This document shows positions 2,483 through 24,755 of a stretch of DNA of 64,000 nucleotides, in pieces. The notes under the pieces were generated by a model. It worked only from the letters and a program-made list of their open reading frames with translations. It ran no database searches and had not been told where the DNA came from. Origin of the DNA: a virus (lineage: Duplodnaviria > Heunggongvirae > Uroviricota > Caudoviricetes); IMG/VR virus record IMGVR_UViG_3300003310_000099, positions 309,405 to 373,404 of that record; one strand, written 5' to 3'. The position numbers and the translations under genes were made by a program. Position 1 is the stretch's first letter. Each line of letters begins with the position of its first letter.

Positions 2483-2527
2483 CTTAGCTGTACCAAGTCT
2501 TTTGTAATCACCTTTACTGGAGCAATC

Positions 2528-2971: not shown

Positions 2972-3019
2972 TAGCTTAGCTGTACTGAGTACAGTGTAAC
3001 CTTACTACGGAGAACGAAA

Positions 3020-3223
3020 ATGCAGGTCATCGACACTCCCGAAGGAATTCGTGCCTATCGTCTGTTGGCTTTGCGGGCCGCTTTGGGACTGGAAGTCAAG
3101 GGGCTGAAAGGGCGAGTGAACGCCTACGCCACAATCAAAAAGGAATTCGGCCTCAAGGGAACCAAGGCAAAGGTCTATGCCTTGTATGAGGCCAAGTTGC
3201 AGGAAATGGGGATTCTTAGCTGA
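3020..3223 (+). CDS. hypothetical protein
   Basis: Motif 2975 + SD GGAG. Confidence 0.75.
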   Translation: MQVIDTPEGIRAYRLLALRAALGLEVKGLKGRVNAYATIKKEFGLKGTKAKVYALYEAKLQEMGILS

Positions 3224-3247
3224 GCGGAGGGCAGAAATCCTCCCAAG

Positions 3248-3308
3248 ACGGGGAACCATAGGGTAAGAGCGGTGCTGGCTTAGGCCAAGAACCTCTATGG
3301 TTCCCCGT
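3248..3308. other. Long intergenic stem-loop with nested hairpin
   Basis: acggggaaccatag pairs with ctatggttccccgt (14 bp perfect); the loop contains tggc-ttag-gcca. Confidence 0.7.
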
Positions 3309-3352
3309 AATTAGCTTAGCTGTACCAAGTAAAGCATAACCCTGGAGAAACC

Positions 3353-3538
3353 ATGTTGGAAAGCTGGATTCTGGCTCGTTACGATCTGAATTACGAGATT
3401 GCTGTTGATGAGGGTCATCAGGAAGAGGCAAGCCGCATTGCTTGGGAGTGGACTGAGAAAGAGTACACTCGGATGTTTCATCGGGTCAAGGGCCAGAAAC
3501 AGGCGCAGCAGCAGGAAGAAATCGCCCTCCGCGATTAG
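3353..3538 (+). CDS. hypothetical protein
   Basis: Motif 3315 + SD. Confidence 0.7.
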   Translation: MLESWILARYDLNYEIAVDEGHQEEASRIAWEWTEKEYTRMFHRVKGQKQAQQQEEIALRD

Positions 3539-3584
3539 CTTAGCTGTACCAAGTTCATTGTAACCTACCTTTTGGAGAATGGTC

Positions 3585-3893
3585 ATGGATACGCTGGAAC
3601 TTGCTTCGGCCCCCGTTGGTGAAGAGTGCGCTCAACTCGGTAGTCCCGACTATTACGAGCGGGCAAAGAAGGAATGCAACGCTTTCATTGGCCAACTTCG
3701 CCGTAAGTTCGGCAAAGAGCCAGTCGGCGCAAGGCTTTACGTCAAGGCCAACGCACATGACTTCGGGAGCTATTACGAAGTGGCGTGCAAATTTGACGGA
3801 AGCAATCAAGAGGCAATCGAGTACGCTTTCGATCTTGAGGCCAATCTGCCCGAAAATTGGGACAAACAGGCCAAGAGCGAACTTGGGTTGTAG
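3585..3893 (+). CDS. hypothetical phage protein
   Basis: Motif 3539 + SD; NAHDFGSYYEV. Confidence 0.8.
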   Translation: MDTLELASAPVGEECAQLGSPDYYERAKKECNAFIGQLRRKFGKEPVGARLYVKANAHDFGSYYEVACKFDGSNQEAIEYAFDLEANLPENWDKQAKSELGL

Positions 3894-3969
3894 GGTTCAG
3901 GGTTCGCCCACCCTGCTTAACCTTAGCTGTACTGAGTTGGTTAAATCCCAAGGCTCGGAGTGTCTGGCG

Positions 3970-4437
3970 ATGATTAACACGGCGGAAGAAATGATTCGGG
4001 TAGTTCTCGATGAAATCGGCCTTCAAAGCAGCTTAGCTGAGATTCGGAACCGAGTGGTCCAATCTCTGAACGAAATTAGAAAGAAATCGGCAACGGAAAG
4101 GATATTGCGTGAAATGGCTAAAGTTTGGGAGAGTTTTGCAAGAGGAGAACAGACATATGAGGCATGTCTGAAAAAAATCGAGCTATGGGCTGCGTTTATT
4201 TGGCAGGCCAATGACGACTCTGGGTATCTGTATGAGGGTTGCACATTAAACCCCGACCACATTTGGCATGAGTGGTGTGCCTGGATTTATGTCGCAAATC
4301 CAGAAGGGTATAGTGTTGGTTATCCGAGTCTGGCATATTGTTGCCAGATCAGGAAGAAGGTGCAGAGGGAACGTGGCGAGGAATACGACTGCCGTACCTA
4401 TGAAGGTCAACCCGACCGCAATATGATTCTGGTCTGA
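3970..4437 (+). CDS. hypothetical protein
   Basis: Start MINTAEE after motif 3922 and SD GGAG; the upstream extension in the ORF track is spurious. Confidence 0.7.
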   Translation: MINTAEEMIRVVLDEIGLQSSLAEIRNRVVQSLNEIRKKSATERILREMAKVWESFARGEQTYEACLKKIELWAAFIWQANDDSGYLYEGCTLNPDHIWHEWCAWIYVANPEGYSVGYPSLAYCCQIRKKVQRERGEEYDCRTYEGQPDRNMILV

Positions 4438-4490
4438 CCAACAGGGTTCGCCCACCCTGCTTTACAAACCTTAGCTGTACCGAGTACATC

Positions 4491-5585
4491 ATGAACACTC
4501 AAGAATATCTGCGTAACGGCAAGACGTTGGAAGACTTGACCTCTGAGTTTCACATCAACGTCACGAAGCACGATACGTTGCCGTTGGTCATCCTGAACTA
4601 CGATCAGATTGAGTCGCCTAAGACTCATCCGATTGTGCGGGAATGCCGTGGTTTGGTTCTCAACTCTGAGGACTATTCGCTGGTGGCGCGGGCTTTCGGA
4701 CGGTTTTTCAATTGGGGTGAAGTGGCGGATGAGATGCCGTTGTTCGATTGGGATTCGTGCGTAGCTCACGAAAAGGTTGACGGTTCGCTGGTTCTCATCT
4801 ACTACTTCGATGGACGTTGGCACGCGAATACGCGAGGCTCGTTCGCTGGTTGGCCGCTGTTCAACGATGAATATGTGGCGAAGTATTACGGTTTGCCGAC
4901 GACGTTCAAGTGGTCCGATGGTTTCCTCAAGGCTTTAGGTGTCAATTCCCTTGAAGAGTTGAACCTTGACAAGTCGTTGACGTATGTATGCGAGTTTTGT
5001 TCGCTCTGGAACAAGGTAGTTCGGACGTACAATGAACCGTGTATGTATATGTTGACGCGGTTTGCGGGCATGGAGGAAATCGGGCCGACGTATCATCCGA
5101 ACTTCAAGACGCTGGGGGCTTATCCGTTGAAGTCTGTACAGGATGTGCAGTCGTTTGTGATGGATCATCCCGAAGCGACTTTCGAGGGTGTAGTCGTCAA
5201 GGATGATGCGCACCGACGTTGGAAGTTGAAGAATCCGCGATACGTTGCGTTGCACCACATGAAGGGGAACGGTACGGAAATCTTCAAGCCTAAGAACTTG
5301 ATGCCGTACATCCTCAAGAATGAGGGCGACGAATTGCTGACGTACTTCCCCGAAGTCAAGGATGTGTTTGCGGAGTACAAGGGCAAGGTTGACGATGCCT
5401 ACAACGTCCTAGAAACGCTCTGGAAGGCGAATAAGGATATTCCCGTCCAAAAGGATTTTGCGTTGTCTATCGTGGGCAAGACGCCGTTTACTTCAGTTCT
5501 GTTCAATCTCCGCAAGCAAGGGGGAACGTTGCGGGATGAATGGATGAAGCACGGGGATGGCATTCTGAAAGTGTTGTTCAAGTAG
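4491..5585 (+). CDS. T4 Rnl1-like RNA ligase
   Basis: ECRGLVL, RFFNWGE, motif I HEKVDGSL, motif IV FEGVVV, motif V KLKNPRYVALHH. Confidence 0.85.
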   Translation: MNTQEYLRNGKTLEDLTSEFHINVTKHDTLPLVILNYDQIESPKTHPIVRECRGLVLNSEDYSLVARAFGRFFNWGEVADEMPLFDWDSCVAHEKVDGSLVLIYYFDGRWHANTRGSFAGWPLFNDEYVAKYYGLPTTFKWSDGFLKALGVNSLEELNLDKSLTYVCEFCSLWNKVVRTYNEPCMYMLTRFAGMEEIGPTYHPNFKTLGAYPLKSVQDVQSFVMDHPEATFEGVVVKDDAHRRWKLKNPRYVALHHMKGNGTEIFKPKNLMPYILKNEGDELLTYFPEVKDVFAEYKGKVDDAYNVLETLWKANKDIPVQKDFALSIVGKTPFTSVLFNLRKQGGTLRDEWMKHGDGILKVLFK

Positions 5586-5642
5586 TATCGAGGGCAGGGG
5601 AAAGCCAACCCTGCCCATTACCTTAGCTGTACCAAGGTGAAT

Positions 5643-5834
5643 ATGAAAACCAAAACAGTTTACGTCTGCGTCAAAGTCAAGGTGGAAATACCCGACGTGC
5701 TTCCCGAAGACGTGGAGGATGCAGTCAACCTTGTAGTCAATGAACTTGACTACACCATGTCTTACGATCAGGATGGCATCAAGATCGTGGGCACGGAAAT
5801 CATGGGCACGGTTGAGGCGGATTCAATTATCTAA
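5643..5834 (+). CDS. hypothetical protein
   Basis: ATG 5 nt after motif 5622. Confidence 0.7.
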   Translation: MKTKTVYVCVKVKVEIPDVLPEDVEDAVNLVVNELDYTMSYDQDGIKIVGTEIMGTVEADSII

Positions 5835-5907
5835 GTCAGGGTATCGCCCACCCTGCTTAACCTTAGCTGTACCAAGTCCAATGCAACCAAACTCATTGGA
5901 GTCAAGT

Positions 5908-6120
5908 ATGTTTAACTTGATCGCAATCGCTGCCAGGTCACTTGGCCACCCGACCACTGGTGACTTCGCTTTCGCTCTATGGGAAATGTGCAGCGGCAAC
6001 CGCCTGGACGTTCGGGACGCCAAGGCGTTGTATGAGGCGTGCGGTTATCTTCCTTTCAACGGGTATCCACTAACAAGGGCAACAAATGGGTTGGCAACGG
6101 AAACAGAACGACAAGCGTAA
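5908..6120 (+). CDS. hypothetical protein
   Basis: Motif 5862 + SD GGAG; start MFNLIA. Confidence 0.6.
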   Translation: MFNLIAIAARSLGHPTTGDFAFALWEMCSGNRLDVRDAKALYEACGYLPFNGYPLTRATNGLATETERQA

Positions 6121-6232
6121 GCTGAACGGGCAAAAGGATTGGACGCGAGAACAAAAGGAACAGGTCAAGCGGTTTCTCAAACAGTATCCGCAAGGAGCGC
6201 AAGATGAACGACAGCAACGAAAAGCTGGATGA
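6086..6232 (+). CDS. small basic hypothetical protein (48 aa)
   Basis: Manual translation MGWQRKQNDKRK...; below the ORF-track cutoff. Confidence 0.45.
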   Translation: MGWQRKQNDKRKLNGQKDWTREQKEQVKRFLKQYPQGAQDERQQRKAG

Positions 6233-6263
6233 TCTTTGGATTGACATTGGCGGCGAAGGCTAA
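6204..6263 (+). CDS. 19-aa peptide MNDSNEKLDDLWIDIGGEG
   Basis: Strong SD AAGGAG; stop codon 2 nt before motif 6266. Confidence 0.55.
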   Translation: MNDSNEKLDDLWIDIGGEG

Positions 6264-6419
6264 ATCTTAGCTGTACCAAGTAGAATGTAACTCAAGTGAA
6301 CCTTAATGAAAGGAAGCTATATTGCGTATAGTTTAGCCCAGAAGTAGCTCATTAGTTGGAAGTGGGACTAATGAGTGTGGGGCCTTACCACTACTAGCTT
6401 TCTCTTACCTGGAGCAACC

Positions 6420-6596
6420 ATGTTGAAGATTTACACTCAGGACCACGGTTACAGTGGCATGATTGTTGCAGTCGCCAAGAATGAGGCGGATGCAAGGAAG
6501 ATCATGAAAGCTGCCGCCAACTACTATGAACATACGCCAGTTGAGGAACATGAAATCAAGGAAGGTTTCATGGAATACAATATGGGTGACGGCTAA
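6420..6596 (+). CDS. hypothetical protein
   Basis: SD CTGGAG; long structured leader after motif 6266. Confidence 0.7.
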   Translation: MLKIYTQDHGYSGMIVAVAKNEADARKIMKAAANYYEHTPVEEHEIKEGFMEYNMGDG

Positions 6597-6641
6597 ACCT
6601 TAGCTGTACCTAGTTAATTGTAACCTAACTGGAGCCAACAC

Positions 6642-6845
6642 ATGGCGAAGCTGACGAATGCGGAACGGGAACAGTGGATCAACAACGATGAGGGTCTGTA
6701 TGACTGGAAACGGTCGTCAAGGCTCTCAATGCGGGAGTTCATCAAGCAGAACAAGGAAGAGATTGACCAGTGCATCAACAACGTGCTGGGCAACAAACAG
6801 CCTGCCCATTACCTCAAGTATGGGCGCTACCCTACATGGCGGTAG
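6642..6845 (+). CDS. hypothetical phage protein
   Basis: Motif 6599 + SD; WINNDEGLYDW. Confidence 0.75.
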   Translation: MAKLTNAEREQWINNDEGLYDWKRSSRLSMREFIKQNKEEIDQCINNVLGNKQPAHYLKYGRYPTWR

Positions 6846-6874
6846 CATCAATCCCAACGCTTGGAGTTCATCCC

Positions 6875-7066
6875 GTGGAAAACGAATTCGATCTTTACAT
6901 CATCATGGCACACGCTGAACATTTGCGGCGTCAGTTGCTGAACAACGAAAAGCCCGATGCGTGGCGTATCAAGCGGCTGAGTGAATTGGCTCAAAACATC
7001 GAACGCGAGTACGATGAGCAATACCAAAAGTGGTGCGATGAGCAAGAGCTTAGCTGTACCGAGTGA
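6875..7066 (+). CDS. hypothetical protein; C-terminus reads through the motif (LSCTE)
   Basis: SD GGAG + GTG. Confidence 0.6.
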   Translation: MENEFDLYIIMAHAEHLRRQLLNNEKPDAWRIKRLSELAQNIEREYDEQYQKWCDEQELSCTE

Positions 7067-7093
7067 GTTGTGATAACTCAAGCGGAGAGTACC

Positions 7094-7318
7094 ATGAAGC
7101 TGGACCCGACTGGTTGCATCGACACGAACAACGGCAAGGGTTACTTTCAGGTCCGCGACAATTGGGAAGGCAACGGCTATCGCCTCTACTTCGGGGGCGA
7201 TAGGTATGTCTCTCAGGTGGACGGTGAAATCAATGGCAAGGTTTACCGTACCATTAAGGCGGCAAAAGCTGATTGCTTCCGTCGCTTCAAGCTAGAAGCG
7301 AAGCGTGTCTATGACTGA
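7094..7318 (+). CDS. hypothetical protein
   Basis: Motif 7049 + SD. Confidence 0.7.
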   Translation: MKLDPTGCIDTNNGKGYFQVRDNWEGNGYRLYFGGDRYVSQVDGEINGKVYRTIKAAKADCFRRFKLEAKRVYD

Positions 7319-7514
7319 TGCCTTCAAGTCTATAGATAAACTCTGTAGACTTTATGGCACTAACTTCTACATTCAAGTTTCCGAGTGTTCCATTGGCATC
7401 TACAACGTGCCAGATGATGACTTCCATATCTTCACTTGGAGCGAAAATCGCTATGTTCTGACCAACATACAAGACTATATCCCCAATTGGCTATCCAACA
7501 AAGTGGGGATATAG
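7311..7514 (+). CDS. hypothetical protein
   Basis: Overlaps the previous stop; ends at motif 7515. Confidence 0.55.
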   Translation: MTDAFKSIDKLCRLYGTNFYIQVSECSIGIYNVPDDDFHIFTWSENRYVLTNIQDYIPNWLSNKVGI

Positions 7515-7563
7515 CCTAGCTGTACCAAGTCCATTGTAATTCAAATCACTTTGGAGAATGGTC

Positions 7564-7815
7564 ATGACTGACAGCGTTGCCAAGATTGCCCGTGTCAACC
7601 CGACCTTGGCCAACAAGATCAACGCACAATTCACCTTCCTCACCAATGAGGACATTGCCGAAGTCGAGAAAATCGACCGCATGATGATGGTGCTGGTGCG
7701 TTGCGGCAATGGCCGATTCGTCTGCCCCGTTCAGAACGCACTACACTTCTGCAACATCATCGACAAGGAAGGCACCGACTACGTTCGGGATATGAGCTTC
7801 CCAAGTAATGGGTAG
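7564..7815 (+). CDS. hypothetical protein
   Basis: Motif 7515 + SD. Confidence 0.75.
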   Translation: MTDSVAKIARVNPTLANKINAQFTFLTNEDIAEVEKIDRMMMVLVRCGNGRFVCPVQNALHFCNIIDKEGTDYVRDMSFPSNG

Positions 7816-7886
7816 AACAGGGTTCGCCCACCCTGCTTAAACCTTAGCTGTACTGAGTGTAATGTAACTCATTCAGGAGGACTTCA

Positions 7887-8102
7887 ATGGCTCAGTGCTG
7901 CGGCGAAGAAATGTACAAGGACTGCAACGGCCAACCGCGTTGTGAACAGTGCCAACCGCCGTGTCCGTGTTGCTATGATGGCGGCATGGATGACCAAGAG
8001 GAAGAAGAAGAATTTTGGCTGACGTGTCTGGATGAGATGGATGCACGATACCGTAAAGGAACGAAAAATGGAAACTCCGCTCCAGAAGCTGCCATTCGAT
8101 GA
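7887..8102 (+). CDS. Cys-rich acidic small protein
   Basis: SD AGGAGG; CCG..C..CEQC..CPCC. Confidence 0.65.
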   Translation: MAQCCGEEMYKDCNGQPRCEQCQPPCPCCYDGGMDDQEEEEEFWLTCLDEMDARYRKGTKNGNSAPEAAIR

Positions 8103-8265
8103 AGCCCTGTACCAGACATTCAATTTCGTTAGCAAAATGTCTGAGTCAATGGATGCTACGTTTACTGATGATGAACGGGCAGCTGTCAAGATCACTTCAC
8201 GCATACTCGCCCAAATGGTTGTGGAAATGCACGACGATACCTTAGCTGTACCTAGTAAGTTGTAA
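8068..8265 (+). CDS. hypothetical protein; C-terminus reads through the motif (LAVPSKL)
   Basis: SD AAGGA. Confidence 0.55.
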   Translation: METPLQKLPFDEALYQTFNFVSKMSESMDATFTDDERAAVKITSRILAQMVVEMHDDTLAVPSKL

Positions 8266-8288
8266 CCCAACCCCAAACGGAGAGTGCC

Positions 8289-8420
8289 ATGTACGAAGTC
8301 ATCCACAAGGGTCGCAGCTTGTTCCGCAACGTCAGCATCGAGCGTTGCCGTCAGTTCATCGCACGGCACAATCTCAGTGGGGCTATCATTCAGCCCCTCA
8401 GTCAAATGTTGGCTGCTTAA
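8289..8420 (+). CDS. small hypothetical protein (43 aa)
   Basis: Motif 8241 + SD GGAG; MYEVIHKGRSLF. Confidence 0.6.
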   Translation: MYEVIHKGRSLFRNVSIERCRQFIARHNLSGAIIQPLSQMLAA

Positions 8421-8466
8421 CTCCAGGGTTCGCCCCCCCTGCGCCACATCTATTAAGGAGCCAAAC

Positions 8467-8649
8467 ATGTATGAGGGTGAAGCCGATTACGTTCCCTACT
8501 TCTGGGAACGCAAGACACCAGTGCAGACCGTTGGCAAGGTGCGTATCTACCTTGTCCAAGACGAAGCTGCACAATTCGATGATCTGATGGGACGAAGCCA
8601 ACTCAACTTGGCCGAATGTTCCAACGGCAAGGTCATGGAAATAGCTTAG
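8467..8649 (+). CDS. hypothetical protein
   Basis: SD AAGGAG; MYEGEADYVPYFW. Confidence 0.65.
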   Translation: MYEGEADYVPYFWERKTPVQTVGKVRIYLVQDEAAQFDDLMGRSQLNLAECSNGKVMEIA

Positions 8650-8689
8650 CTGTACCTAGTTAATTGTAACCTTACTCTGGAGCAAACAC

Positions 8690-8881
8690 ATGCAGGTACA
8701 TCTTTACGGCAAGCCTCTGGTTGAGGGGAAGACTGTGACGCTGGACCATACGGTTCAGAAGTTCGAGATTCTGATTCGCTCCATGAGTGGGGTTCATGCA
8801 CAACGCTTGAAAGACCTCATTCAGAAGCAGTTTGAGGTCGTCAAGATCAAGGAAGTGGACAGCATTTCTTACGTCATCTAA
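8690..8881 (+). CDS. hypothetical protein
   Basis: Motif 8645 + SD. Confidence 0.7.
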   Translation: MQVHLYGKPLVEGKTVTLDHTVQKFEILIRSMSGVHAQRLKDLIQKQFEVVKIKEVDSISYVI

Positions 8882-8925
8882 GGGGCAGGGTCGCCCACCC
8901 TGCTTAAACCTTACGGAGTCCTACC

Positions 8926-9516
8926 ATGAAGATCATTGCTGCCTACAACAAGTACACCAAGGAAGCCTTGACCAACGAACAGCGGGAAGCTGACATGGAG
9001 GCACTACTTGAGGCACATGAAGAAGAAGTGAAAACCAACCCCACATGGAAGTATTTCGGGGGGCATCATCGAGCTAGGCGACCACGAATACCAAGTGTGC
9101 TAAACCTTAGCTGTACTGAGTACAGTGTAACCCCAACACTTGGAGCAAACATGGACAAGCATTTGCAAGAGCGTATCGACCGTTTCGTGCAGGCCGCTGA
9201 TCGGTGCGTGGAAACCTACTGGACGAACAGTGGCTACACCCACATGTCACCGCCCAAACATCGCGCCAACGAGATTAGCGACAAATGGGTGCGAGTTGTG
9301 ACGGTCGAAGAACGCAATGGCGTTTGGCAGGATTCGAGCGTCTACGCCTTCATCTGCCTCAAGGACTATTCGACCAAGGCTTTAGGTCAACTCAAGAAGG
9401 GCGACATTCACAAACCAGCGACCTACAAGGCCGCTGCGAAGCACGCAAGGGGCAACGTGTTCGACAACGATTTTGAGAAGTGCCTGACGCCGTGGGGTAT
9501 CGTCTACTTGAAGTAA
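8926..9516 (+). CDS. Two cassette ORFs joined in frame through motif 9106 (second start ATG 9151)
   Basis: Internal motif + SD GGAG + ATG 9151; GDIHKPATYKAAAKHARGNV. Confidence 0.7.
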   Translation: MKIIAAYNKYTKEALTNEQREADMEALLEAHEEEVKTNPTWKYFGGHHRARRPRIPSVLNLSCTEYSVTPTLGANMDKHLQERIDRFVQAADRCVETYWTNSGYTHMSPPKHRANEISDKWVRVVTVEERNGVWQDSSVYAFICLKDYSTKALGQLKKGDIHKPATYKAAAKHARGNVFDNDFEKCLTPWGIVYLK

Positions 9517-9565
9517 GGGGCAGGGTCGCCCACCCTGCTTAAACCTTAGCTGTACCGAGTAGAGT

Positions 9566-9844
9566 ATGAACAAACAAGAATACGCTGAGTATGAGGCACG
9601 GGTAGCCGAGTTCTTCAGCCACGGTTTGGCTAACTTGTCAACCAAGTCGGATTGCCATGAACCGTTCTTTTCGTGGCGTCCGTGTCAGTGCTGCGGGACA
9701 CACTTAGGCGGCAATCGCTATGAGTGTGACGGGTACAATGAGAAGACAAAGGAAGTCGAAGAGTACGACAACATTTGCGAAGACTGCGTATATTACGCAG
9801 AATACGGGCAGCTTGACGATACCACTATGGCCAATCTGGAGTAA
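9566..9844 (+). CDS. Cys-rich hypothetical phage protein
   Basis: FSWRPCQCCG..GGNR, CEDC; ATG 5 nt after motif 9545. Confidence 0.75.
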   Translation: MNKQEYAEYEARVAEFFSHGLANLSTKSDCHEPFFSWRPCQCCGTHLGGNRYECDGYNEKTKEVEEYDNICEDCVYYAEYGQLDDTTMANLE

Positions 9845-9846
9845 CC

Positions 9847-10020
9847 ATGAAACTCAGCGAAGCTATCCACAAGCTGCAATATACGCTCAATCTCCACGGC
9901 GATAAGGAAATGAAACAGTGGAAGTATAGCGACGGCAAGGTACAGTCTGTGCCCGTCAAGCTGGAAGTAGCCGAAAACCCCGAAGATGATACCATCGGCG
10001 TCATCCTCAGTGCCGAATAA
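9847..10020 (+). CDS. small hypothetical protein (57 aa)
   Basis: Manual translation MKLSEAIHKLQ; stop abuts motif 10022. Confidence 0.6.
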   Translation: MKLSEAIHKLQYTLNLHGDKEMKQWKYSDGKVQSVPVKLEVAENPEDDTIGVILSAE

Positions 10021-10042
10021 CCTTAGCTGTACCGAGTAAAGC

Positions 10043-10222
10043 ATGAACACATCACTTGAAAAGAAGATCAATCATAAGCGGCGTTTGCGTGTGCTGCGTG
10101 AGAGACTTCGCAAGCTGCTGCTCCAATACTACGTTCATTCGGACGCGGGCAAGCTGGAGAAGCATGTTCGTGTGATGAACAAGCTCCGCAAGGCAATCAG
10201 AAAGCTTAGCTGTACCAAGTAG
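10043..10222 (+). CDS. small basic protein (59 aa); reads through the motif (LSCTK)
   Basis: ATG 5 nt after motif 10022. Confidence 0.6.
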   Translation: MNTSLEKKINHKRRLRVLRERLRKLLLQYYVHSDAGKLEKHVRVMNKLRKAIRKLSCTK

Positions 10223-10250
10223 GTTGTAATCACCCTTACTGGAGTCAGCC

Positions 10251-10508
10251 ATGCAAGACCACGTTCTCGACAACTGCCTCATTCATCAGAAAGATGCCAT
10301 TATCGACCTCATCGACAGTGGCAAGCACGATGAGGCGATAACGCTGCTCAAGTTCGTCAAGGAACTGTGGGAAGCCGCGAGCTACGACTACAAGTACAGA
10401 GAACTCAAGGAGCGCGGCGTCAGAGCGGCGGATAACCGAGAGAACTGCCGCCACTGGAAGCACGTCCAGTCACTCACGGCCATTCAGAACAAGTATCGTT
10501 CACTGTAA
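10251..10508 (+). CDS. hypothetical protein
   Basis: Motif 10205 + CCTTACTGGAG. Confidence 0.75.
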   Translation: MQDHVLDNCLIHQKDAIIDLIDSGKHDEAITLLKFVKELWEAASYDYKYRELKERGVRAADNRENCRHWKHVQSLTAIQNKYRSL

Positions 10509-10596
10509 GGGGTGGATAGGGGAGAAAGCCAATCCCCTTATCCTGCTGATACCTTAGCTGTACCTAGTGCAGTATAACCCTTACTGGAGAAGACAC

Positions 10597-10773
10597 ATGA
10601 AGGTTTGCCAGAAGTGCGGGGATGAGATTGGCACCAAGGACGGGGACAACTATTGTGGCAAGTGCCACAAGAAGAAGGATGCGGCCAAGAGACGGAAGGA
10701 ACGGGAAGACGTGTTGCGTAGTTGTGGGTTGGTGAAGGTGCGTGGGGCAATGGGTGGAACCTATTGGGAATAA
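10597..10773 (+). CDS. small Zn-finger protein
   Basis: CQKC..CGKC; GLVKVRGAMGGTYWE. Confidence 0.75.
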   Translation: MKVCQKCGDEIGTKDGDNYCGKCHKKKDAAKRRKEREDVLRSCGLVKVRGAMGGTYWE

Positions 10774-10850
10774 CCCAATAGGTCGCCCAACCCAGCATAG
10801 CTTAGCTGTACCAAGTGCATTGTGACAGTCAAACCCCTGGAGTCAGTGCA

Positions 10851-11207
10851 ATGCGGTATTTCATCAAGTTGGCCAAGAAGAACGACCGTGGCGAACCCGT
10901 CAACACGGGTTGGTATGAAGAGGTGGATGAGTACACGTTCAAGAACGCCAAGTATGCGCTCAACGATTGCGGCGATGGTCCGCGTTACACGAACGACGCT
11001 GTGATGGTGGACGGCGATGAGGTCACTGCACGGTTGGTCGCAGCCCCAATACGGGACTTGGCCATTCTGACGCGATACTTTCAGGCGTCGGAACCGAACA
11101 AGGTGGAAGGCGGTTTCGTCCGCGAGCAACCGAGTATCAAGTTCAACATTCGCGGCAAGATCAAGCTGCGTGAGAAGGACGGTAGCATCTGGAGCAAAGC
11201 AGCGTAA
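10851..11207 (+). CDS. hypothetical protein
   Basis: Motif 10801 + SD. Confidence 0.75.
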   Translation: MRYFIKLAKKNDRGEPVNTGWYEEVDEYTFKNAKYALNDCGDGPRYTNDAVMVDGDEVTARLVAAPIRDLAILTRYFQASEPNKVEGGFVREQPSIKFNIRGKIKLREKDGSIWSKAA

Positions 11208-11256
11208 ACCAACAGGGTCGCCCACCCTGCTTTACCTTAGCTGTACGGAGTGGAGT

Positions 11257-11433
11257 ATGAGCTACCTTCGTCACATGCGGACTACTGCTGAATGCCGCGC
11301 TGAAAGCGGGGCCGAAGAACAAGGCGTCAAGGTGCGTGCGAAGCGTAATCGCCGCAATATCCCCAACGCTTGGGACGACGTGCCTCATGCCCGTCGCCAC
11401 AAGTGCGACCGCCACAAGGATCATCGTCGCTAA
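11257..11433 (+). CDS. small Arg-rich protein
   Basis: ATG 5 nt after motif 11236; RAKRNRRNIPNAWDD. Confidence 0.7.
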   Translation: MSYLRHMRTTAECRAESGAEEQGVKVRAKRNRRNIPNAWDDVPHARRHKCDRHKDHRR

Positions 11434-11562
11434 CGGGCGGGTGTACGGTCTGGCGGCGGGGGCCGTCAGCGTAAGGTAGGCAAACCTACACCGTACACCT
11501 GCCCAAAAGTACAAAGCTTAGCTGTACCTAGTATAGTGTAATCACCCTTACTGGAGACAGCC

Positions 11563-11739
11563 ATGCACGCTACCACCGAACGCAAGAAGTCCAACAAGAA
11601 CGATTTCACCGTCACCACGACGGTCAAGGATCGCGCCATTCACATCCAGACCATCATTATGATGGCAGCAAGGTCCAACCGCGAACCCGATAAGCGCCGC
11701 AAGCTGCGGGAACGCGACGACCGCCGCATGAGGGACTGA
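11563..11739 (+). CDS. small basic protein (58 aa)
   Basis: Motif 11517 + CCTTACTGGAG. Confidence 0.6.
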   Translation: MHATTERKKSNKNDFTVTTTVKDRAIHIQTIIMMAARSNREPDKRRKLRERDDRRMRD

Positions 11740-11860
11740 TGAGCGAACAAGAAATTGCCGACTGGCTCGCAGAACTACGCGAGTCAGTCGGCACCAGACC
11801 CCAAGGATAGCTTAGCTGTACCAAGTAGGTTGTAACCAACACCCTTACTGGAGAGTACAC

Positions 11861-12244
11861 ATGACCGCTACCGTGTCCCTCAGCTGCGAACGCTACTTCC
11901 CCGAAACCAACAAGCGGGGCAAGAATGGCAAGCTGCAACGCATTTGCATCGACGTGCGCAAGATGCAGATTCGCGGCGACTTCATCACCACGACGGGCTT
12001 TGAGGTCAACTACCTCAAGCGGGGCGGCGAATTCCGCTTCTACGTCAAGAGCATCGTCAAGCCTGTCAAGTCGATATGGCAGGAATTGAACACCCGTCCG
12101 CAACCCATTATCCCGAAGTGGGAGCGGGAAGGCAACTACAGTCGGGATGAATTCGTGGCGTGGCTCAAGGCACGCCGTATCCAAAACGCCGAAAGCCTTG
12201 TCATCGCTCTGATGACGATGCCCCCCGAAAACTTGGCAGCGTAG
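11861..12244 (+). CDS. hypothetical protein
   Basis: Motif 11811 + CCTTACTGGAG. Confidence 0.75.
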   Translation: MTATVSLSCERYFPETNKRGKNGKLQRICIDVRKMQIRGDFITTTGFEVNYLKRGGEFRFYVKSIVKPVKSIWQELNTRPQPIIPKWEREGNYSRDEFVAWLKARRIQNAESLVIALMTMPPENLAA

Positions 12245-12323
12245 CCAACAGGGTCGCCCACCCTGCATAGCCCATAGCTTAGCTGTACCAAGTAGAGTGT
12301 AACCAACACTCAGGAGTCAGCAC

Positions 12324-12464
12324 ATGCGGGCCAAACATCGTAACGACCACAATCATGGCAAGAGCGGTTGGGTCGGTGGCAATCCACGTTATGGCCGTAA
12401 ACGTGGCTTCCGCAAGTCCGATCAACCCAAAGACAAAGCCGCCTGGAAACGCGAAGTCAAGTAA
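12324..12464 (+). CDS. small basic protein (46 aa)
   Basis: Motif 12278 + SD AGGAG. Confidence 0.6.
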   Translation: MRAKHRNDHNHGKSGWVGGNPRYGRKRGFRKSDQPKDKAAWKREVK

Positions 12465-12470
12465 GGGGTG

Positions 12471-12500
12471 AGACAGGGGACTGCCAACCCTGTCTTTTTT
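12471..12500 (+). terminator. intrinsic terminator
   Basis: agacaggg..ccctgtct stem followed by a T tract. Confidence 0.7.
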
Positions 12501-12505
12501 CGTTT

Positions 12506-12746
12506 CAACCTAAACTCAGTACAGCTAAGCTTTTACACCTCCATACTGTACAAAGTGCTTCACCTCTCAAATGCGATTAAATGCGTTTTAAGCCACTCTG
12601 AGGTCAAGGTGACTCTCGACCCACTTAACCCATTTGAATCGCTTCTAGGGCCATCCTAGCGTCAGCAAATGGCATCCGCGAATCCAATCCCGAATGTTCA
12701 AAGACCGCACCGAATCCTACCCTAATTAAGCTTAGCTGTACCGAGT
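12506..12746. repeat. Non-coding direct repeat copy A, bounded by outward-facing motif copies
   Basis: Colinear with 14835-15076; shared blocks include aatgcgattaaatgcgttttaagccactct, aggtcaaggtgactctcgaccca, cttctagggccatcctag, gtcagcaaatggcat and aatcctaccctaattaag. Confidence 0.9.
12514..12529 (-). promoter_or_regulatory. Inverted copy of the 16-bp cassette motif
   Basis: actcagtacagctaag is the reverse complement of CTTAGCTGTACTGAGT. Confidence 0.9.
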
Positions 12747-12784
12747 ATATTGTTCTAAACCACCCCATACTGGAGAACACGAAC

Positions 12785-12985
12785 ATGCGTTGCGAAGATG
12801 CCCCGTGCTGCGGTTGCTGCCCGTCCTACTACGATCACGACGCCTACGATGACATGGAGCAGTACGACGACCGCGACGACGCACGGTACGACGACGTTGA
12901 GGAAGACCACATCCTTGAGCAGCAGGAGCTTGAGGACTTCGAGCAGGCCGACGAATACTTCGGCCACTACAACGATTGGGAGTAG
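12785..12985 (+). CDS. small acidic protein with CEDAPCCGCC
   Basis: Motif 12731 + SD. Confidence 0.75.
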   Translation: MRCEDAPCCGCCPSYYDHDAYDDMEQYDDRDDARYDDVEEDHILEQQELEDFEQADEYFGHYNDWE

Positions 12986-13069
12986 GGGGAAGGGGTCGCC
13001 CACCCCTTTATAATAAGTTTACCTTAGCTGTACCTAGTCCAGTGTAACGCTTCTTACTGGAGTGCAGCA

Positions 13070-13555
13070 ATGCTGACCGTCACCGAACTCCGCGACAATC
13101 TGATGGCCCTGAAGGGCGCAGCGATCATCACGATTGAGGCCGAGACGGAGCCTCAGATGCGCAAGACGGATAACCCCTACGTTGGCACCGTCAAGGTGTC
13201 AAGCGTCAACGGCGTCATCAACTGGATTTACGAGATTGCCGTCAACAACCAACGGCTGCGGGAAGACAAGGAAGCAGACTTCGTTGCCTTCCCCCGTAAG
13301 TGGGGCAAACGCATCAAGGGCACCCCACTGGTGGAACACAAAGGCAAGTTCTACCTTGAAATGAAGGTGCAGAGCGCCAAAGCCAAGTACGTTCACGGCG
13401 ATGCCGAGATTGCCGTAAGTGAGCTAATCCCCTACTTCTACGAACGGGGCAAGTCTCGTCAAGGCGTCGATAAGGAAGTCATCCTACGGGACTACGCTCT
13501 TGAGAACATCAAGGGCATTCGCTGGGGTGGCGAACTCATCAAGGTAGGGGCATGA
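13070..13555 (+). CDS. hypothetical phage protein
   Basis: Motif 13023 + SD; 161-aa ORF. Confidence 0.8.
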   Translation: MLTVTELRDNLMALKGAAIITIEAETEPQMRKTDNPYVGTVKVSSVNGVINWIYEIAVNNQRLREDKEADFVAFPRKWGKRIKGTPLVEHKGKFYLEMKVQSAKAKYVHGDAEIAVSELIPYFYERGKSRQGVDKEVILRDYALENIKGIRWGGELIKVGA

Positions 13556-13617
13556 TGCCCTAATTAGGATAGCTTAGCTGTACCTAGTACAGTGTTCCTC
13601 AACCCCTGGAGACGCAC

Positions 13618-13791
13618 ATGACTCTACACTGCATCCTCTGCGGCGAAGAAGCGGCCTTGACGCTGAATCTGCAAGATGGGGAAACCGTGTCTTGTCCCGA
13701 ATGCGGGAACGACTTCACGACCGCCGACGTGAAGGAACGCATCGAAGAGTGGACGCAGGCGTTAGCCTGGATCAACAACATGCCCAAGTAA
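13618..13791 (+). CDS. Zn-ribbon protein (57 aa)
   Basis: CILCG..CPECG; motif 13573 + SD. Confidence 0.7.
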   Translation: MTLHCILCGEEAALTLNLQDGETVSCPECGNDFTTADVKERIEEWTQALAWINNMPK

Positions 13792-13870
13792 TGGGCATGG
13801 TCGCCCTAATTAGGATAGCTTAGCTGTACCTAGTAGAGTGTAATCACCACCACCTTACTGGAGAGTACAC

Positions 13871-14236
13871 ATGGGCGTCCGTCTCTACCCGAACACGACC
13901 AACGCGGCGAAGCTGGAGAAGTTGGCTGGTGTCCCCGAAGGGACGCACAAGCGGATGGAAGACATGGCAAAGCGGCACGCGGAGGAACGCGCTGCGGCCA
14001 CCAACTGGAACGAGTACGAAGACGGCTACCGCCAATGGAAGGAACGGGACAACGACGGTCCTATTGGCGACTTGGACGCCTTCCTTACCTTCGGGTGGGG
14101 CAAGTTCCGCCCAATCGACGGCATCGGGGAGGATTACGCGGGCAACGAGAGCGACCCACAACGGGCCGCGAAGCTGCTCCGATACAACGGTATCGGGGTG
14201 GACGTGAGCCTAACGGAAGGCGTCCACTGGTGCTAG
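13871..14236 (+). CDS. hypothetical protein
   Basis: Motif 13819 + CCTTACTGGAG. Confidence 0.75.
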   Translation: MGVRLYPNTTNAAKLEKLAGVPEGTHKRMEDMAKRHAEERAAATNWNEYEDGYRQWKERDNDGPIGDLDAFLTFGWGKFRPIDGIGEDYAGNESDPQRAAKLLRYNGIGVDVSLTEGVHWC

Positions 14237-14241
14237 TGGAC

Positions 14242-14267
14242 AGGGGGCGAAAGCCCCCTTTTCTTTT
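14242..14267 (+). terminator. intrinsic terminator
   Basis: agggggc-gaaa-gccccct followed by a T-rich tail. Confidence 0.75.
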
Positions 14268-14329
14268 ATACAACCATTACCTTAGCTGTACCTAGTGGAG
14301 TGTCCCCCCTTCACTACTGGAGCCGCACG

Positions 14330-14473
14330 ATGACGCTGAAACAGCAGCTGGAAAAGTTCGATGCGCAGGCCGACACCTACGCCAAGGCCACGAAGGAGCC
14401 TTGGGAGTGCGAGAGCTACGCTGAATGGGTGGCTTCGCTGCCCGAAGAAGAACAACCTTATGAAAATGAGTAA
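14330..14473 (+). CDS. small acidic protein (47 aa)
   Basis: Motif 14281 + SD. Confidence 0.6.
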   Translation: MTLKQQLEKFDAQADTYAKATKEPWECESYAEWVASLPEEEQPYENE

Positions 14474-14555
14474 CACGGGCATCGCCCGCCCTAATTAGGA
14501 TAGCTTAGCTGTACCTAGTAAGTTGTTCCAACCAACCCCATACGGAGACACGCAC

Positions 14556-14801
14556 ATGGCCACCGTCATCGCTTCCAACCTCACCGCCGTTGTCGTCTAC
14601 CGCGTCGAGAAGACGCTGGGGCCGAATGGCCGCGTCAAGCAGCTGACCGACGTGACGATCAAGGCGGGGCCGCTCACGGTCGCCACCAAGACGCTCTGGG
14701 GCCGCTACAGTCAGAGCAAGGCTCTGGTGGAGTTCAAGCGGAACCCCAAGGGCTGGACGGTGCTGGATGCCGCCGCGTCCAAGTTGCCGATTGCGGCCTA
14801 A
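14556..14801 (+). CDS. hypothetical protein
   Basis: Motif 14504 + SD. Confidence 0.75.
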   Translation: MATVIASNLTAVVVYRVEKTLGPNGRVKQLTDVTIKAGPLTVATKTLWGRYSQSKALVEFKRNPKGWTVLDAAASKLPIAA

Positions 14802-14805
14802 CGAG

Positions 14806-14830
14806 AAGGGGGCTTCGGCCCCCTTTTTTT
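14806..14830 (+). terminator. intrinsic terminator
   Basis: aagggggc-ttcg-gcccccttttttt. Confidence 0.85.
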
Positions 14831-14834
14831 ATTC

Positions 14835-15076
14835 CAACCTAAACTCGGTACAGCTAAGTTTTATGTAAAGATTACTGTACATAAGTGCTTCATGGCTAGA
14901 ATGCGATTAAATGCGTTTTAAGCCACTCTAAGGTCAAGGTGACTCTCGACCCATTTGAGCAATCTAAACGCCTTCTAGGGCCATCCTAGTGTCAGCAAAT
15001 GGCATTCGCAAAGGCAAACCCAAGAGGCAAACCGACTGGCCCAATCCTACCCTAATTAAGCTTAGCTGTACCTAGT
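14835..15076. repeat. Non-coding direct repeat copy B, bounded by outward-facing motif copies
   Basis: Same blocks and nearly identical length to copy A (motif-to-motif span 234 vs 233 bp). Confidence 0.9.
14843..14858 (-). promoter_or_regulatory. Inverted copy of the 16-bp cassette motif
   Basis: actcggtacagctaag is the reverse complement of CTTAGCTGTACCGAGT. Confidence 0.9.
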
Positions 15077-15114
15077 AAGTTGTAAGATTCACCCCCCTTA
15101 CTGGAGAGACGGCC

Positions 15115-15438
15115 ATGCACACCAAGGAAAGCATTGCGGCGCTGTTGGCCACGAACGACAAGGCCGTGTATCGCGCTCTGGTGGTGCTGTTCGAGCGGCA
15201 GACCGCCGACGAACGCGACTCGGAGCAGACGAATCACCTCAACGGGATGGGCTTCAACGGGCGGGACGCCAAGTTCGGCACCTCGTTGGCCAAACAGGTC
15301 ATCCGTTGGCAGGACGGGTTGACCAACTACCGAACGCCGTTGACGATGGCGCAGACGAGCGCCGCACGCAAGATGCTCCGCAAGTACGCGGGACAGTTGG
15401 CCAAAGTCGCCAACGAGAAGGCCGCAGTCGGGGTCTAA
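15115..15438 (+). CDS. hypothetical phage protein
   Basis: Motif 15061 + SD; RQTADE..NGMGFNGRDA..KYAGQL. Confidence 0.8.
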   Translation: MHTKESIAALLATNDKAVYRALVVLFERQTADERDSEQTNHLNGMGFNGRDAKFGTSLAKQVIRWQDGLTNYRTPLTMAQTSAARKMLRKYAGQLAKVANEKAAVGV

Positions 15439-15442
15439 GGGG

Positions 15443-15470
15443 AAGGGGGCTTCGGCCCCTTTTTCCTTTT
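15443..15470 (+). terminator. intrinsic terminator
   Basis: ggggc-ttcg-gcccc followed by a T tract. Confidence 0.8.
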
Positions 15471-15563
15471 ATAAGGATTAGCTTAGCTGTACCTAGTACA
15501 GTGTAACGACGACTGGTCTTCATCATATAGTGGCCCTTCCCTCACCCTGTTCTGGAGTCGGCA

Positions 15564-15722
15564 ATGAAGTACGTCTATGGTGACTTGGTGCTGAGTGCGG
15601 TGCATGGCTGCTACGTCCGTGTCAAGGAACAACAGGGCTGCTACTTGGTTGTCATGGATCGCAATACGCTGGTCGAGTTGCCCGACCACATCCACATATC
15701 GCAAGCCACGTTCGCCAAGTAG
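15564..15722 (+). CDS. small hypothetical protein (52 aa)
   Basis: SD CTGGAG after motif 15482. Confidence 0.55.
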   Translation: MKYVYGDLVLSAVHGCYVRVKEQQGCYLVVMDRNTLVELPDHIHISQATFAK

Positions 15723-15727
15723 CATGA

Positions 15728-15766
15728 GATTAGCACTAAGCTATTAGGTATAGCTTAGTGCTAATC
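15728..15766. repeat. Perfect 17-bp inverted repeat at the right end of the cassette array
   Basis: gattagcactaagctat-taggt-atagcttagtgctaatc. Confidence 0.85.
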
Positions 15767-16059
15767 ATATTGAATAGCTTAGCTGTACCAAGTAAGGTGT
15801 AACATAATTAAGAATGGAGAAATTAATTTCAAAAAAGTTTGAAAAAAAGAAAATAAAAAGGAGGGGGCTACCCGCCATACGAGCCTTCTTATACATGAAG
15901 ACAAGAAAAAATTCCACAGGTAGGTTTTCAAATTTCAAATTATAGAAAAAAATTCCCAATTTCGTGTTTCAAAAATTGGGAATTTCAAAATTTTCATTTT
16001 CCGTTATTAGCTCAAAACTTTACCAAAATCCGATTTCCAAAAATAGCATTGCTGGATTT

Positions 16060-16875
16060 TTAGCACTGGCCTTCAACCCATTTAAAAATCTCTATACCCT
16101 TATCAATTTCCAGTTTATACCATTCATTCTTTTTGTCTTGGAAGACCGCCGCAGGTTGTAATATGCTTTTCAAGAGATTTTCTGCCTTTGTGCGGTTATC
16201 AAATACTTTTGATTTATAATGTCTTTTATAATCTCTAAAAGGCGCGCCAGTTTGATAACTATCTACTCTTTCCTCATAATCAAGTGACTTACCAACTTTA
16301 AAATATCCTGGCCATGCAGGATTAGTTAATAAATATAAATATCCTTTTTTAATACCACACTGTTTATTTTTCAATGTTGCCAGTATTGCATCTCGTTCTT
16401 TTCTTATCTCATCTAATTCTTGGTCAAATTCTGTTATTTGTTTAGGAACTATTTTACTAGCAATAAAATTTCGGTCTTCGGCAGATAGAGGTAATACTAC
16501 AGGCCGATCATAACAATTACTTACGTTTAATTTTGCACCCTTTCCAGTATCGTAAACCACTAACTTACCTTGGAATAATTTTATAGATGGAGATGCATCT
16601 GGATAGAGTTTTCGGAATTCCTCGACAGCAGGCACCATTGTATTCAAAAATGTCTGGTAGTCTATGCCGATAGATAACAAAGTATGCTTCATTCTTCTCC
16701 AGCATTCCTTAACTCTACCTAGCACAGTTGAATAAAGTTGGCGGTAATTTTTCCTGTGGCATTCAAGACAAATACTGTCTCGGTCATAACGGTGTCCATA
16801 TCCAGTTGATTTTTTGAATTCATTGAGTAATTTTTCGTCCCCGCAATTTCTACATTTTATTTTTTCAGTAATCAT
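16060..16875 (-). CDS. GIY-YIG-superfamily (T5orf172-like) nuclease with N-terminal Zn finger
   Basis: CRNC..CLEC; GYLYLLTNPAWPGYFKVGKS..YQTGAPFRDY..EWY. Confidence 0.75.
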   Translation of the reverse strand: MITEKIKCRNCGDEKLLNEFKKSTGYGHRYDRDSICLECHRKNYRQLYSTVLGRVKECWRRMKHTLLSIGIDYQTFLNTMVPAVEEFRKLYPDASPSIKLFQGKLVVYDTGKGAKLNVSNCYDRPVVLPLSAEDRNFIASKIVPKQITEFDQELDEIRKERDAILATLKNKQCGIKKGYLYLLTNPAWPGYFKVGKSLDYEERVDSYQTGAPFRDYKRHYKSKVFDNRTKAENLLKSILQPAAVFQDKKNEWYKLEIDKGIEIFKWVEGQC

Positions 16876-23237: not shown

Positions 23238-24755
23238 TTACTCTTGTTTGTTATTAAAAGACTTACGGAACTTATCAGTTTCAATATTCTTAATAGCACT
23301 ACCGAACTCTTCACCTTGAGGGATTCTGCCGCCAAGGTGTTGTACGATTTCTGGGTTTACTACTCTTCTATCGCCATCCTGAACATAACCTCTTGTCTGC
23401 ATATCGTGAGATATGAACTTGTTCATAACGTCGTCTGGAAGTTTATTCATCCTACCCCATTGCTTTGCCAAGCTTGGGACGATGCCTGTTTTGTGGAAAT
23501 TTTTCTTCATATCATAGAACTTATCGAAGAACGCTTGTGGATTTTGTTCATGCGAAGAAACCCACTTAGCAAGTTCGATCAAGTGTGTGATATCACGAAT
23601 TTCGTCATTGGTCCAAGTGCCTTGACGAAGTGCTTTTTCAATTTTAAATGTTGGGTTGTTTCTCAACAGCCAAGCGATGGCTAATCTCTTTTCTTTTTTA
23701 TCACTGAAGTCTTCAGGTGCATCTAGTTTGAATTCCAAGTCTGGGAATACAGTATTCAGCATACCCAATTCTTTGAATAGTTTTACATAGTGTGCTGGAT
23801 CAACGTCTGGATGTTGTAGACCCTTCAAGAATTCATCCCTAATACGTTCACGGCTTACAGATGGCAAGTCCTTAATATCTGTAATTGCTTCCTTTACGTC
23901 ATCTGGAATTTTGGTGTTCTTACCATGAGAAGCTACGAAGCGAAGGTAACGCATAGCTCTTAGCTGATCTTCTTCCAATCTTTCTCTTGCATTGCCGACG
24001 AATTTTACTTCTCCGCTTCTGATGTGGTGAGCGCCACCGTGAGGATCAATAAGTTTAGCGTTTGCACCATCTGCGGTTGTAAGTGGGATATACATAGAGT
24101 TCATGGTGAAGTCACGGCGTTGTGCATCATCATCGAGTCCAGCGAATTCCATGCGATCTGGTGTTCTCCCGTCACCGCTCTTGGAGTCTTTTCTGAAAGT
24201 TGCGATTTCAAATTCTTCGCCGTTGACTCTAGCGCCGATTACGAATTCTTTACCACTACGGTCCCAGCCCTTGGCATAGAAAATCTTGCTTTTATTACCA
24301 GCTTCTGGGTGTTTTTCATATTTCTTATCAATAGGCGCATTCTTTCCAGTCTGTGGTTTAGTTTCAGCGAAACCTGCACTTCTTAGAATTAATCTGATTT
24401 CATCTGGGGTTGCGTCTGTAGCCAGGTCATAGTCTTTAGGAGTTTTGCCTTTAAGATGATCCCTTACTGCACCGCCGACTAAGTATAGACCTTTCTTTTT
24501 CAATTTAGGTGTGGTTTCACCTTTAGATGGGTCCATAGTTGTTAATTTTTGTGGATAGCCATCTGGACCAGGCAGACTAACTTGGCCACTATCAAGGAAT
24601 GCCTTGATGATGGTTCTTAGATTAGGATGACGTTCAGCGTCAACTGTAAATGGCTTGAAGTCACTGTCATCACCGAGTTTAACTTCGGATGGTGCCTTCT
24701 TTCCACCTTCTACATTTTCTTTCAAGCTCAAGTATTCTAAAAAAGTTTTTCTCAT
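23238..24755 (-). CDS. cca: Class II tRNA nucleotidyltransferase (CCA-adding enzyme/poly(A) polymerase family)
   Basis: VGGAVRD..KDYDLAT, EIATFR, DAQRRDFTMN, EDQLR.MR..RF, SRERIRDEF. Confidence 0.85.
   Translation of the reverse strand: MRKTFLEYLSLKENVEGGKKAPSEVKLGDDSDFKPFTVDAERHPNLRTIIKAFLDSGQVSLPGPDGYPQKLTTMDPSKGETTPKLKKKGLYLVGGAVRDHLKGKTPKDYDLATDATPDEIRLILRSAGFAETKPQTGKNAPIDKKYEKHPEAGNKSKIFYAKGWDRSGKEFVIGARVNGEEFEIATFRKDSKSGDGRTPDRMEFAGLDDDAQRRDFTMNSMYIPLTTADGANAKLIDPHGGAHHIRSGEVKFVGNARERLEEDQLRAMRYLRFVASHGKNTKIPDDVKEAITDIKDLPSVSRERIRDEFLKGLQHPDVDPAHYVKLFKELGMLNTVFPDLEFKLDAPEDFSDKKEKRLAIAWLLRNNPTFKIEKALRQGTWTNDEIRDITHLIELAKWVSSHEQNPQAFFDKFYDMKKNFHKTGIVPSLAKQWGRMNKLPDDVMNKFISHDMQTRGYVQDGDRRVVNPEIVQHLGGRIPQGEEFGSAIKNIETDKFRKSFNNKQE

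Follow-up and report, generated by a model that had tools for sequence, protein, structure and literature searches.

Conserved non-coding elements bounded by outward-facing promoters near the end of a small-gene array in huge phages: candidate genome-level cis sites

Why would a long array of promoters that otherwise share one orientation contain exactly two that point backwards? The question is raised by the last 64 kb (bases 309405-373404; hereafter the window, with positions counted from its first base) of the 373,404-bp virus record IMGVR_UViG_3300003310_000099 (G000). The first 15.8 kb of the window are the end of an array of small genes of about 67 kb, in which each gene is headed by one motif with the 12-nucleotide (nt) core CTTAGCTGTACC. 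With at most one mismatch this core occurs 113 times in the full 373-kb record, 111 times on the plus strand and only twice on the minus strand, at 12518-12529 and 14847-14858. Each of these inverted copies opens a non-coding element of about 260 bp, E1 (12494-12755) and E2 (14823-15085) respectively, that is closed by a forward copy. We read E1 and E2 as members of a family of conserved, cis-acting non-coding DNA elements in a clade of huge phages, each probably a platform of fixed geometry between outward promoters, whose likeliest role is that of a genome-level cis site, origin-like or otherwise; we put the probability of this reading at about one half.

The evidence that carries it comes from an alignment (A9) of 11 elements from seven lineages, namely E1, E2 and nine further copies from six related metagenomic phage contigs, in which conserved blocks keep a near-invariant spacing across saturated spacers and the flanking promoters change along with the promoter type of each lineage. 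The multi-site platform acting as DNA that had been proposed for this locus in an earlier note, made from the sequence alone, gains support from these comparisons.

Architecture of the two elements

The motif is read as a promoter because an ATG or a purine-started leader sits at position 22 from its first C. At many copies the ATG itself lies there, without a ribosome-binding site, defining leaderless genes, while at others a purine at this position opens a short leader with a GGAG site. In the 64-kb window 47 matches with up to two mismatches were found against 3.9 expected. The two inverted copies have 0-1 mismatches to the core, continue into GAGT and sit 10-20 nt beyond a GC hairpin and its T-run (T6-7). 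The extended inverted matches start at 12514 and 14843, and the forward copies that close the elements (12731-12742 in E1, 15061-15072 in E2) follow about 200 nt after the inverted ones, giving spans of 233 bp (12514-12746) and 234 bp (14843-15076). That the only two inverted copies each follow a T-tailed terminator, face no gene and start an element ending at a forward copy had been noticed earlier within the window; it holds genome-wide (2 of 113 copies), and no plausible gene was found downstream of either inverted copy. The parts of the two elements and their immediate neighbours are listed below, with block and spacer identities given between or within the promoter classes of the 11 aligned elements.

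12468..12499, plus strand: intrinsic terminator of the upstream 46-residue gene and left border of E1, a GC hairpin with T6, read directly
12509..12533 (core 12518-12529), minus strand: inverted promoter copy of E1, with a leftward start predicted at about 12508-12509 from the +22 rule at leaderless genes
12544..12562: block B1, with a TGTACA half-promoter-like core; 86% identity between promoter classes, promoter-matrix score negative
12569..12600: block B2L, in which the palindrome TTAAA-N5-TTTAA spans 12577-12591; 78% identity between classes
12601..12640: variable spacer of fixed length, 43-44 nt in 11 of 11 elements; 46% identity between classes
12641..12676: block B3, 34 nt in 11 of 11 elements; 69% identity between classes, 92% within class
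12677..12711: right-hand spacer, 29-70 nt across the 11 elements; 34% identity between classes
12712..12752 (core 12731-12742), plus strand: CTAAT box and forward promoter of E1, predicted to drive the gene at 12785-12985
12785..14801, plus strand: block of six genes between the elements, each with its own promoter; two of them have homologues next to the single element of G005 and G003
14806..14829, plus strand: intrinsic terminator, left border of E2
14838..14862 (core 14847-14858), minus strand: inverted promoter copy of E2, with a leftward start predicted at about 14837-14838
14873..15041: core of E2, comprising B1 (14873-14892), B2L (14899-14930), the fixed spacer (14931-14970), B3 (14971-15006) and the variable spacer (15007-15041)
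15042..15082 (core 15061-15072), plus strand: CTAAT box and forward promoter of E2
15115..15438, plus strand: gene for a 107-residue protein (phrog_21015) of no known function

E1 and E2 are 79% identical over 262 columns with a single 1-nt indel, and their differences are unevenly placed: 13 mismatches in the 188 positions of five blocks against 38 in the 65 positions of four variable segments (Fisher p = 6e-17; run permutation p < 1e-4). Thus the alternation of conserved blocks with diverged spacers of fixed length reported in the earlier note is borne out. The ratio of transitions to transversions is 10:3 in the blocks and 11:27 in the variable segments. The differences are not adenine-specific, making a diversity-generating retroelement unlikely, and the variable segments have no long matches elsewhere that would mark them as guide- or spacer-like. 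Stops occur in all six frames of both elements, and the core was rejected as coding sequence, there being no frame open in both copies. With a GC content of 45-47% the core lies between the local array (55%) and the genome (about 40%). A search with nhmmer recovered no third copy in the genome, whose other long non-coding repeats are all short, and none of the 7-9-mers of the core is enriched elsewhere in it.

Conservation and co-variation in related phages

A sequence search with positions 12000-15500 against 50,697 phage records gave no match, nor is there a counterpart among isolated phages. Of the deposited records the nearest is an uncultured phage of 595 kb whose proteins are 50-61% identical, and both motif and element are missing from it. 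Exact-block scans recovered nothing in IMG/VR beyond two relatives, and nothing in metagenome contigs or prokaryote genomes. Among full-length genomes the nearest relative is G002 (390 kb; one structural protein is 85% identical), in which the promoter differs by one base and the core is missing. It has three inverted promoter copies, each placed after a hairpin and paired with a forward copy 16, 60 or 75 bp off, and at one of these sites the left border is homologous to those of E1 and E2. An 8-mer shared between E1 and the G002 sites was discarded as weak, since it occurs at chance frequency genome-wide.

Searching more distant relatives with the core gave real matches in G005 and G003, first via the B2L part. 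Both genomes, which are close to each other, carry a single element, in which a terminator precedes an inverted copy of the genome's own promoter (different from that of G000), recognizable B1 and B2L blocks and a forward promoter. These single elements are flanked by homologues of the window genes that follow E2 and E1. True inverted copies number one against 95 forward copies in G005 and one against 18 in G003, and in both cases the inverted copy lies in the element. With the 107-residue protein as a handle, a profile search then gave seven elements on the metagenome contigs L088, L089, L094 and L095, one of which is duplicated on L090. Direct copies come in pairs, 1.5-2.3 kb apart, in four lineages, and the other three have one copy each; the bracketing of a gene block by direct copies, already seen in the window, is therefore real and recurrent. 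In all five lineages with a visible array end, 1-3.5 kb separate the element from the 3' end of the array, and flanking genes vary between lineages, because of which we consider the element autonomous. The gene for the 107-residue protein is never more than one gene away from an element in any element-bearing lineage, and G002 has neither this gene nor the core, although this linkage is partly built in, seven of the nine new elements having been found via the neighboring gene. The protein is modeled with confidence as all-helical (pLDDT 90.8); it belongs to no Pfam family and has no meaningful structural match (Foldseek best E = 0.84; VIA best Z = 5.6).

The element-bearing lineages use four promoter types that have the TGTAC core in common, and in all 11 elements both the inverted and the forward arm match the local type. 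When the two arms are treated as a helix, 92.7% of the cells are complementary and 8 of 15 pairs have changed on both sides, a result that none of 500 shuffles or slid controls approached. Because the arms follow the local type and the sole inverted copies lie in elements, we regard the inverted arm as a member kept within the promoter set. More generally, the related phages (G002, G003, G005, L093, L094, L095 and the window) show at least six promoter variants of about 20-100 copies each, which share the TGTAC core and differ in the 5-6 nt upstream; this spread looks like co-evolution of the promoter with its recognition factor.

Within the core the distances are nearly fixed. The inverted promoter core is followed by B1 at 28-30 nt in 10 of the 11 elements and at 22 nt in one, and across all 11 B2L starts 24-25 nt after B1, the anchors within B2L are 16 nt apart, those of B2L and B3 57-59 nt and those within B3 27 nt. 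In contrast, orthologous non-coding DNA at the array end is rich in indels between G000 and G002. The half-sites of the B2L palindrome are retained in 10 or 11 of the 11 elements at each paired column while its 5-nt center is free to vary, a pattern that suits the site of a dimeric DNA-binding protein. On the left border, the T-run and the next 12 nt or so are kept in most homologues. A mini-ORF (open reading frame) of 6-9 codons (MRLN, one variable residue, F or V, stop) overlaps B2L in 10 of 11 elements (12571-12591 and 14901-14921 in the window), and a three-base swap in G003 and G005 matches one of its codons exactly; it has no ribosome-binding site and was not adopted as coding.

The same alignment bears on RNA. 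On neither strand of the 11 sequences is there a conserved or covarying helix in the core, except for an AT hairpin that never varies. Three compensatory pairs can be drawn from E1 and E2 alone, but as many are reached by 32% of column shuffles. The comparison of covariation with spacing proposed in the earlier note thus comes out on the side of spacing.

What the element might do

From its left end, the element begins with a terminator or hairpin, continues with the phage's own promoter in inverted orientation and then a core in which three or four conserved blocks keep fixed distances, and ends with a forward promoter. If both arms are working promoters they would fire outwards, and the core would thereby stay free of read-through transcription and become negatively supercoiled; the blocks would be binding sites on which one or more proteins assemble a complex of fixed geometry. 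We favor such a DNA platform because the combination seen here, of blocks that are conserved, spacers free in sequence but fixed in length and promoters pointing outward on either side, is that of a protein-DNA assembly. As to its role, a genome-level cis site seems the best candidate, with a transcription-activated replication origin as first choice and a master control region for the leftward promoter as the alternative. Accordingly ranked, an origin-like platform comes first, a control region of the leftward promoter second and a pair of recombination sites third.

Several known systems offer parallels. In the T7 primary origin and in T4 oriF and oriG a phage-specific promoter is part of the replication start site. 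There the functional DNA lies downstream of the promoter, whereas the conserved core of our element lies upstream of both promoters, and any priming of replication by it would be hypothetical. The herpesvirus origins oriS and oriL lie between back-to-back promoters, contain a palindrome and are present in more than one copy; the element resembles them in its divergent promoters, its palindrome and, in four lineages, its second copy. At oriC neighboring transcription (gidA, mioC) helps opening. To our knowledge, no described element has terminal inverted repeats that are the phage's own promoter and that change along with it. As a nucleoprotein platform bacterial oriC, the standard example of such an assembly, is composed of conserved base clusters separated by spacers of free sequence and fixed length, with site orientation and spacing being critical (PMC4285127), and the element is like it in having conserved blocks at fixed spacing. 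It appears to lack the DnaA boxes, repeated iterons and clear AT-rich unwinding element of oriC, shows no turn in skew, is flanked by promoters of the phage's own special type and may be present in two copies. We file it with origin-like or operator-like platforms between divergent promoters as the nearest known class.

Against an origin-like platform stand the following points. Nowhere in the core do three or more iterons stand in a row, and an AT-rich unwinding region is not evident; there are one palindrome and one pair of 7-nt repeats, and the pair is not conserved. Cumulative GC skew, in which the earlier note had suggested looking for a change, rises through the site with no turn, a weak test in a genome with nearly all genes in one orientation. 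In G002, which lacks the core, an origin that was both essential and sole would need to have been replaced. By an extended promoter matrix, which takes in the downstream TGT box, the inverted copies score 24.0 and 20.4 against a forward median of 38, with only 4 and 1 of the 111 forward copies scoring lower. Finally, in each of the four elements tested the minus strand folds somewhat better than its shuffled versions (z = -3.4, -1.9, -1.8 and -1.2), and so do the central 96 nt, which leaves room for a single-strand role.

The element supplies a concrete, sharply bounded candidate in huge uncultured phages, which lack mapped origins, packaging sites or control regions. Conservation across lineages with four changes of promoter recognition amounts to a natural experiment on the co-evolution of promoter and element, and shows that the backward-facing promoter copies, rare as they are in these arrays, are no accidents. 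The arrangement of blocks and fixed spacers predicts which insertions would be damaging, and function could be tested on a plasmid without phage culture. A bolder version, which we consider speculative and rather unlikely as a whole, would make the element a site of a new kind for phage replication or genome maintenance. Its bounding promoters would be obligatory and co-evolve with transcription specificity, outward transcription would drive opening or extrusion of the fixed-geometry core, and paired copies would act as a bipartite system around a small gene block, possibly together with the 107-residue protein.

Among the rival explanations the strongest, though still unlikely in our view, is a regulated antisense-promoter module, in which the blocks would be upstream control sites of the leftward promoter only and the rest of the core mere spacer, with either a short RNA that stops at the shared hairpin or a longer antisense transcript running across the preceding cassette to tune or insulate the array end. 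B1 and B2L do lie at fixed distances upstream of the inverted promoter, the first 15 or so transcribed nt and the hairpin are alike in E1, E2, G003, G005 and a G002 site, and in G002 one inverted promoter has its own minus-strand terminator about 115 nt on and another a bidirectional one. However, B3, with its exact distance of 57-59 nt from B2L, lies more than 120 nt away, too far for ordinary promoter control; the antisense targets vary across lineages; and, read leftward, the hairpins of E1 and G003 are not followed by a U-tract. As an observation in its own right, the minus-strand unit of about 115 nt behind an inverted promoter of G002 (293.8 kb; L059 3810-3948), which ends at its own hairpin and T-run, is a candidate small RNA.

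The direct copies might alternatively be site-specific recombination sites with accessory arms, between which the intervening block is excised as a circle or amplified. Accessory-arm sites such as res, cer and attP span 120-280 bp, have several protein-binding blocks at fixed distances and act as direct-repeat pairs. The size and fixed internal geometry of the element recall res and cer, and its occurrence as direct pairs 1.5-2.3 kb apart in four lineages and singly in three others would fit, as would the mini-circles reported from promoter-terminator cassettes of T4-type phages (PMC2839356). The paralogues, however, are only 64-79% identical and lack a long stretch of identity that could serve as a crossover core, and nothing in the known sites corresponds to the promoter arms. 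No recombinase family was recognized among the nine neighboring genes, to which this search was limited, and the gene order in single-copy lineages is unlike the product of a simple deletion between copies. We therefore hold this explanation to be improbable.

Hardly better placed is the proposal of a non-coding RNA gene in the core, which would probably lie on the minus strand and be transcribed from a promoter type not recognized here. A structured RNA was among the options of the earlier note and is now disfavored. Besides the folding of the minus strand noted above, it could appeal to the predominance of transitions among the block differences of E1 and E2 (10 of 13). Yet the missing covariation speaks against it, and the long hairpins predicted for E1 and E2 pair differently. 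No promoter faces into the core, a scan of the region for sigma-70 promoters found none, Rfam gave no match at gathering scores and nothing meaningful even at E = 10, and a tRNA search was negative.

Least probable by far is a neutral or selfish duplication, that is, a small inverted-repeat element or a promoter palindrome with filler that gene conversion has patchily homogenized. The arms are indeed 22-nt terminal inverted repeats, in G002 promoter palindromes enclose unrelated filler sequences of 16, 60 and 75 bp, and copies within a genome are about as similar to each other as orthologues are. Such a duplication is largely refuted because the element is conserved across lineages, its blocks retaining their fixed spacing over four promoter classes; divergence is clustered and lacks the uniformity that the earlier note would have expected of neutral copies, target-site duplications are absent and each genome has 1-2 copies at a constant place in the array. 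A miniature inverted-repeat transposable element was rejected on similar grounds, the inverted repeats being present but without end duplication, in 1-2 copies and at a fixed place. The invertible promoter segment earlier entertained is contradicted by the orientation of the core relative to the array, which is the same in all 11 elements, and by the absence of a promoter inside the core.

The promoter array and the rest of the window

The array around the element, like each of the element's own borders, finds its best analogue in the PeSL cassettes of T4-type phages, in which arrays of small genes are split by composite terminator and promoter units that recombine, shuffle genes and can form mini-circles (PMC2839356, PMC4122927). 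PeSL promoters are sigma-70-like, all co-oriented and without a conserved core of 190 bp, and the words "inverted", "opposite orientation" and "antisense" are absent from the 2014 PeSL paper. As the element has a terminator and a promoter, but a promoter that is a phage-specific single block and inverted on the left, it was not classed as a PeSL cassette.

A scan of IMG/VR with the motif returned single chance matches only. In the 373-kb genome no polymerase of the T7-like or multisubunit family was found; three ORFs contain sigma-70 region 2 (genome 16927, 96377 and 157848), and a search of two giant ORFs for solved relatives gave none. At genome positions 196410, 245403 and 252651 a copy of the motif is immediately followed by a well-formed sigma-70-like promoter with a common extended -10 region, arrangements that may be tandem promoters for host and phage. 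Some copies of the motif (2975-3000, 9106-9130, 13573-13598 and 15482-15507 of the window) have a core that, with the bases after it, makes up a perfect stem of 6 bp and a loop of 3 nt; the consensus retains the inner 3-4 pairs of this stem, recalling hairpin promoters.

GC content rises steadily from about 0.41 to 0.555 along the array (genome 260-325 kb; window 1-16000) and falls sharply to about 0.40 at its end near 15.8 kb, the remainder of the genome being at about 0.38-0.42. At the array end (15728-16060 of the window) a palindrome with perfect 17-nt arms, which amounts to half a promoter in both orientations, lies 5' of the last promoter of the array, and at the corresponding site G002 has a full inverted promoter. 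The non-coding stretch 3' of the last array promoter is kept in G002 and in a 93% relative (L060 8500-8900; L086 about 800-960). The ends of the record have no terminal repeat and are thus uninformative on the genome ends.

Beyond the array, an ORF of 1877 residues (51449-57082) without Pfam or solved relatives contains many diverged internal DNA repeats of 100-850 bp with 70-95% identity (52600-56300). A minus-strand ORF of 505 residues (23238-24755) encodes an enzyme of the CCA-adding or poly(A) polymerase family, and the 1052-residue ORF at 34710-37868 contains an intein with a LAGLIDADG endonuclease.

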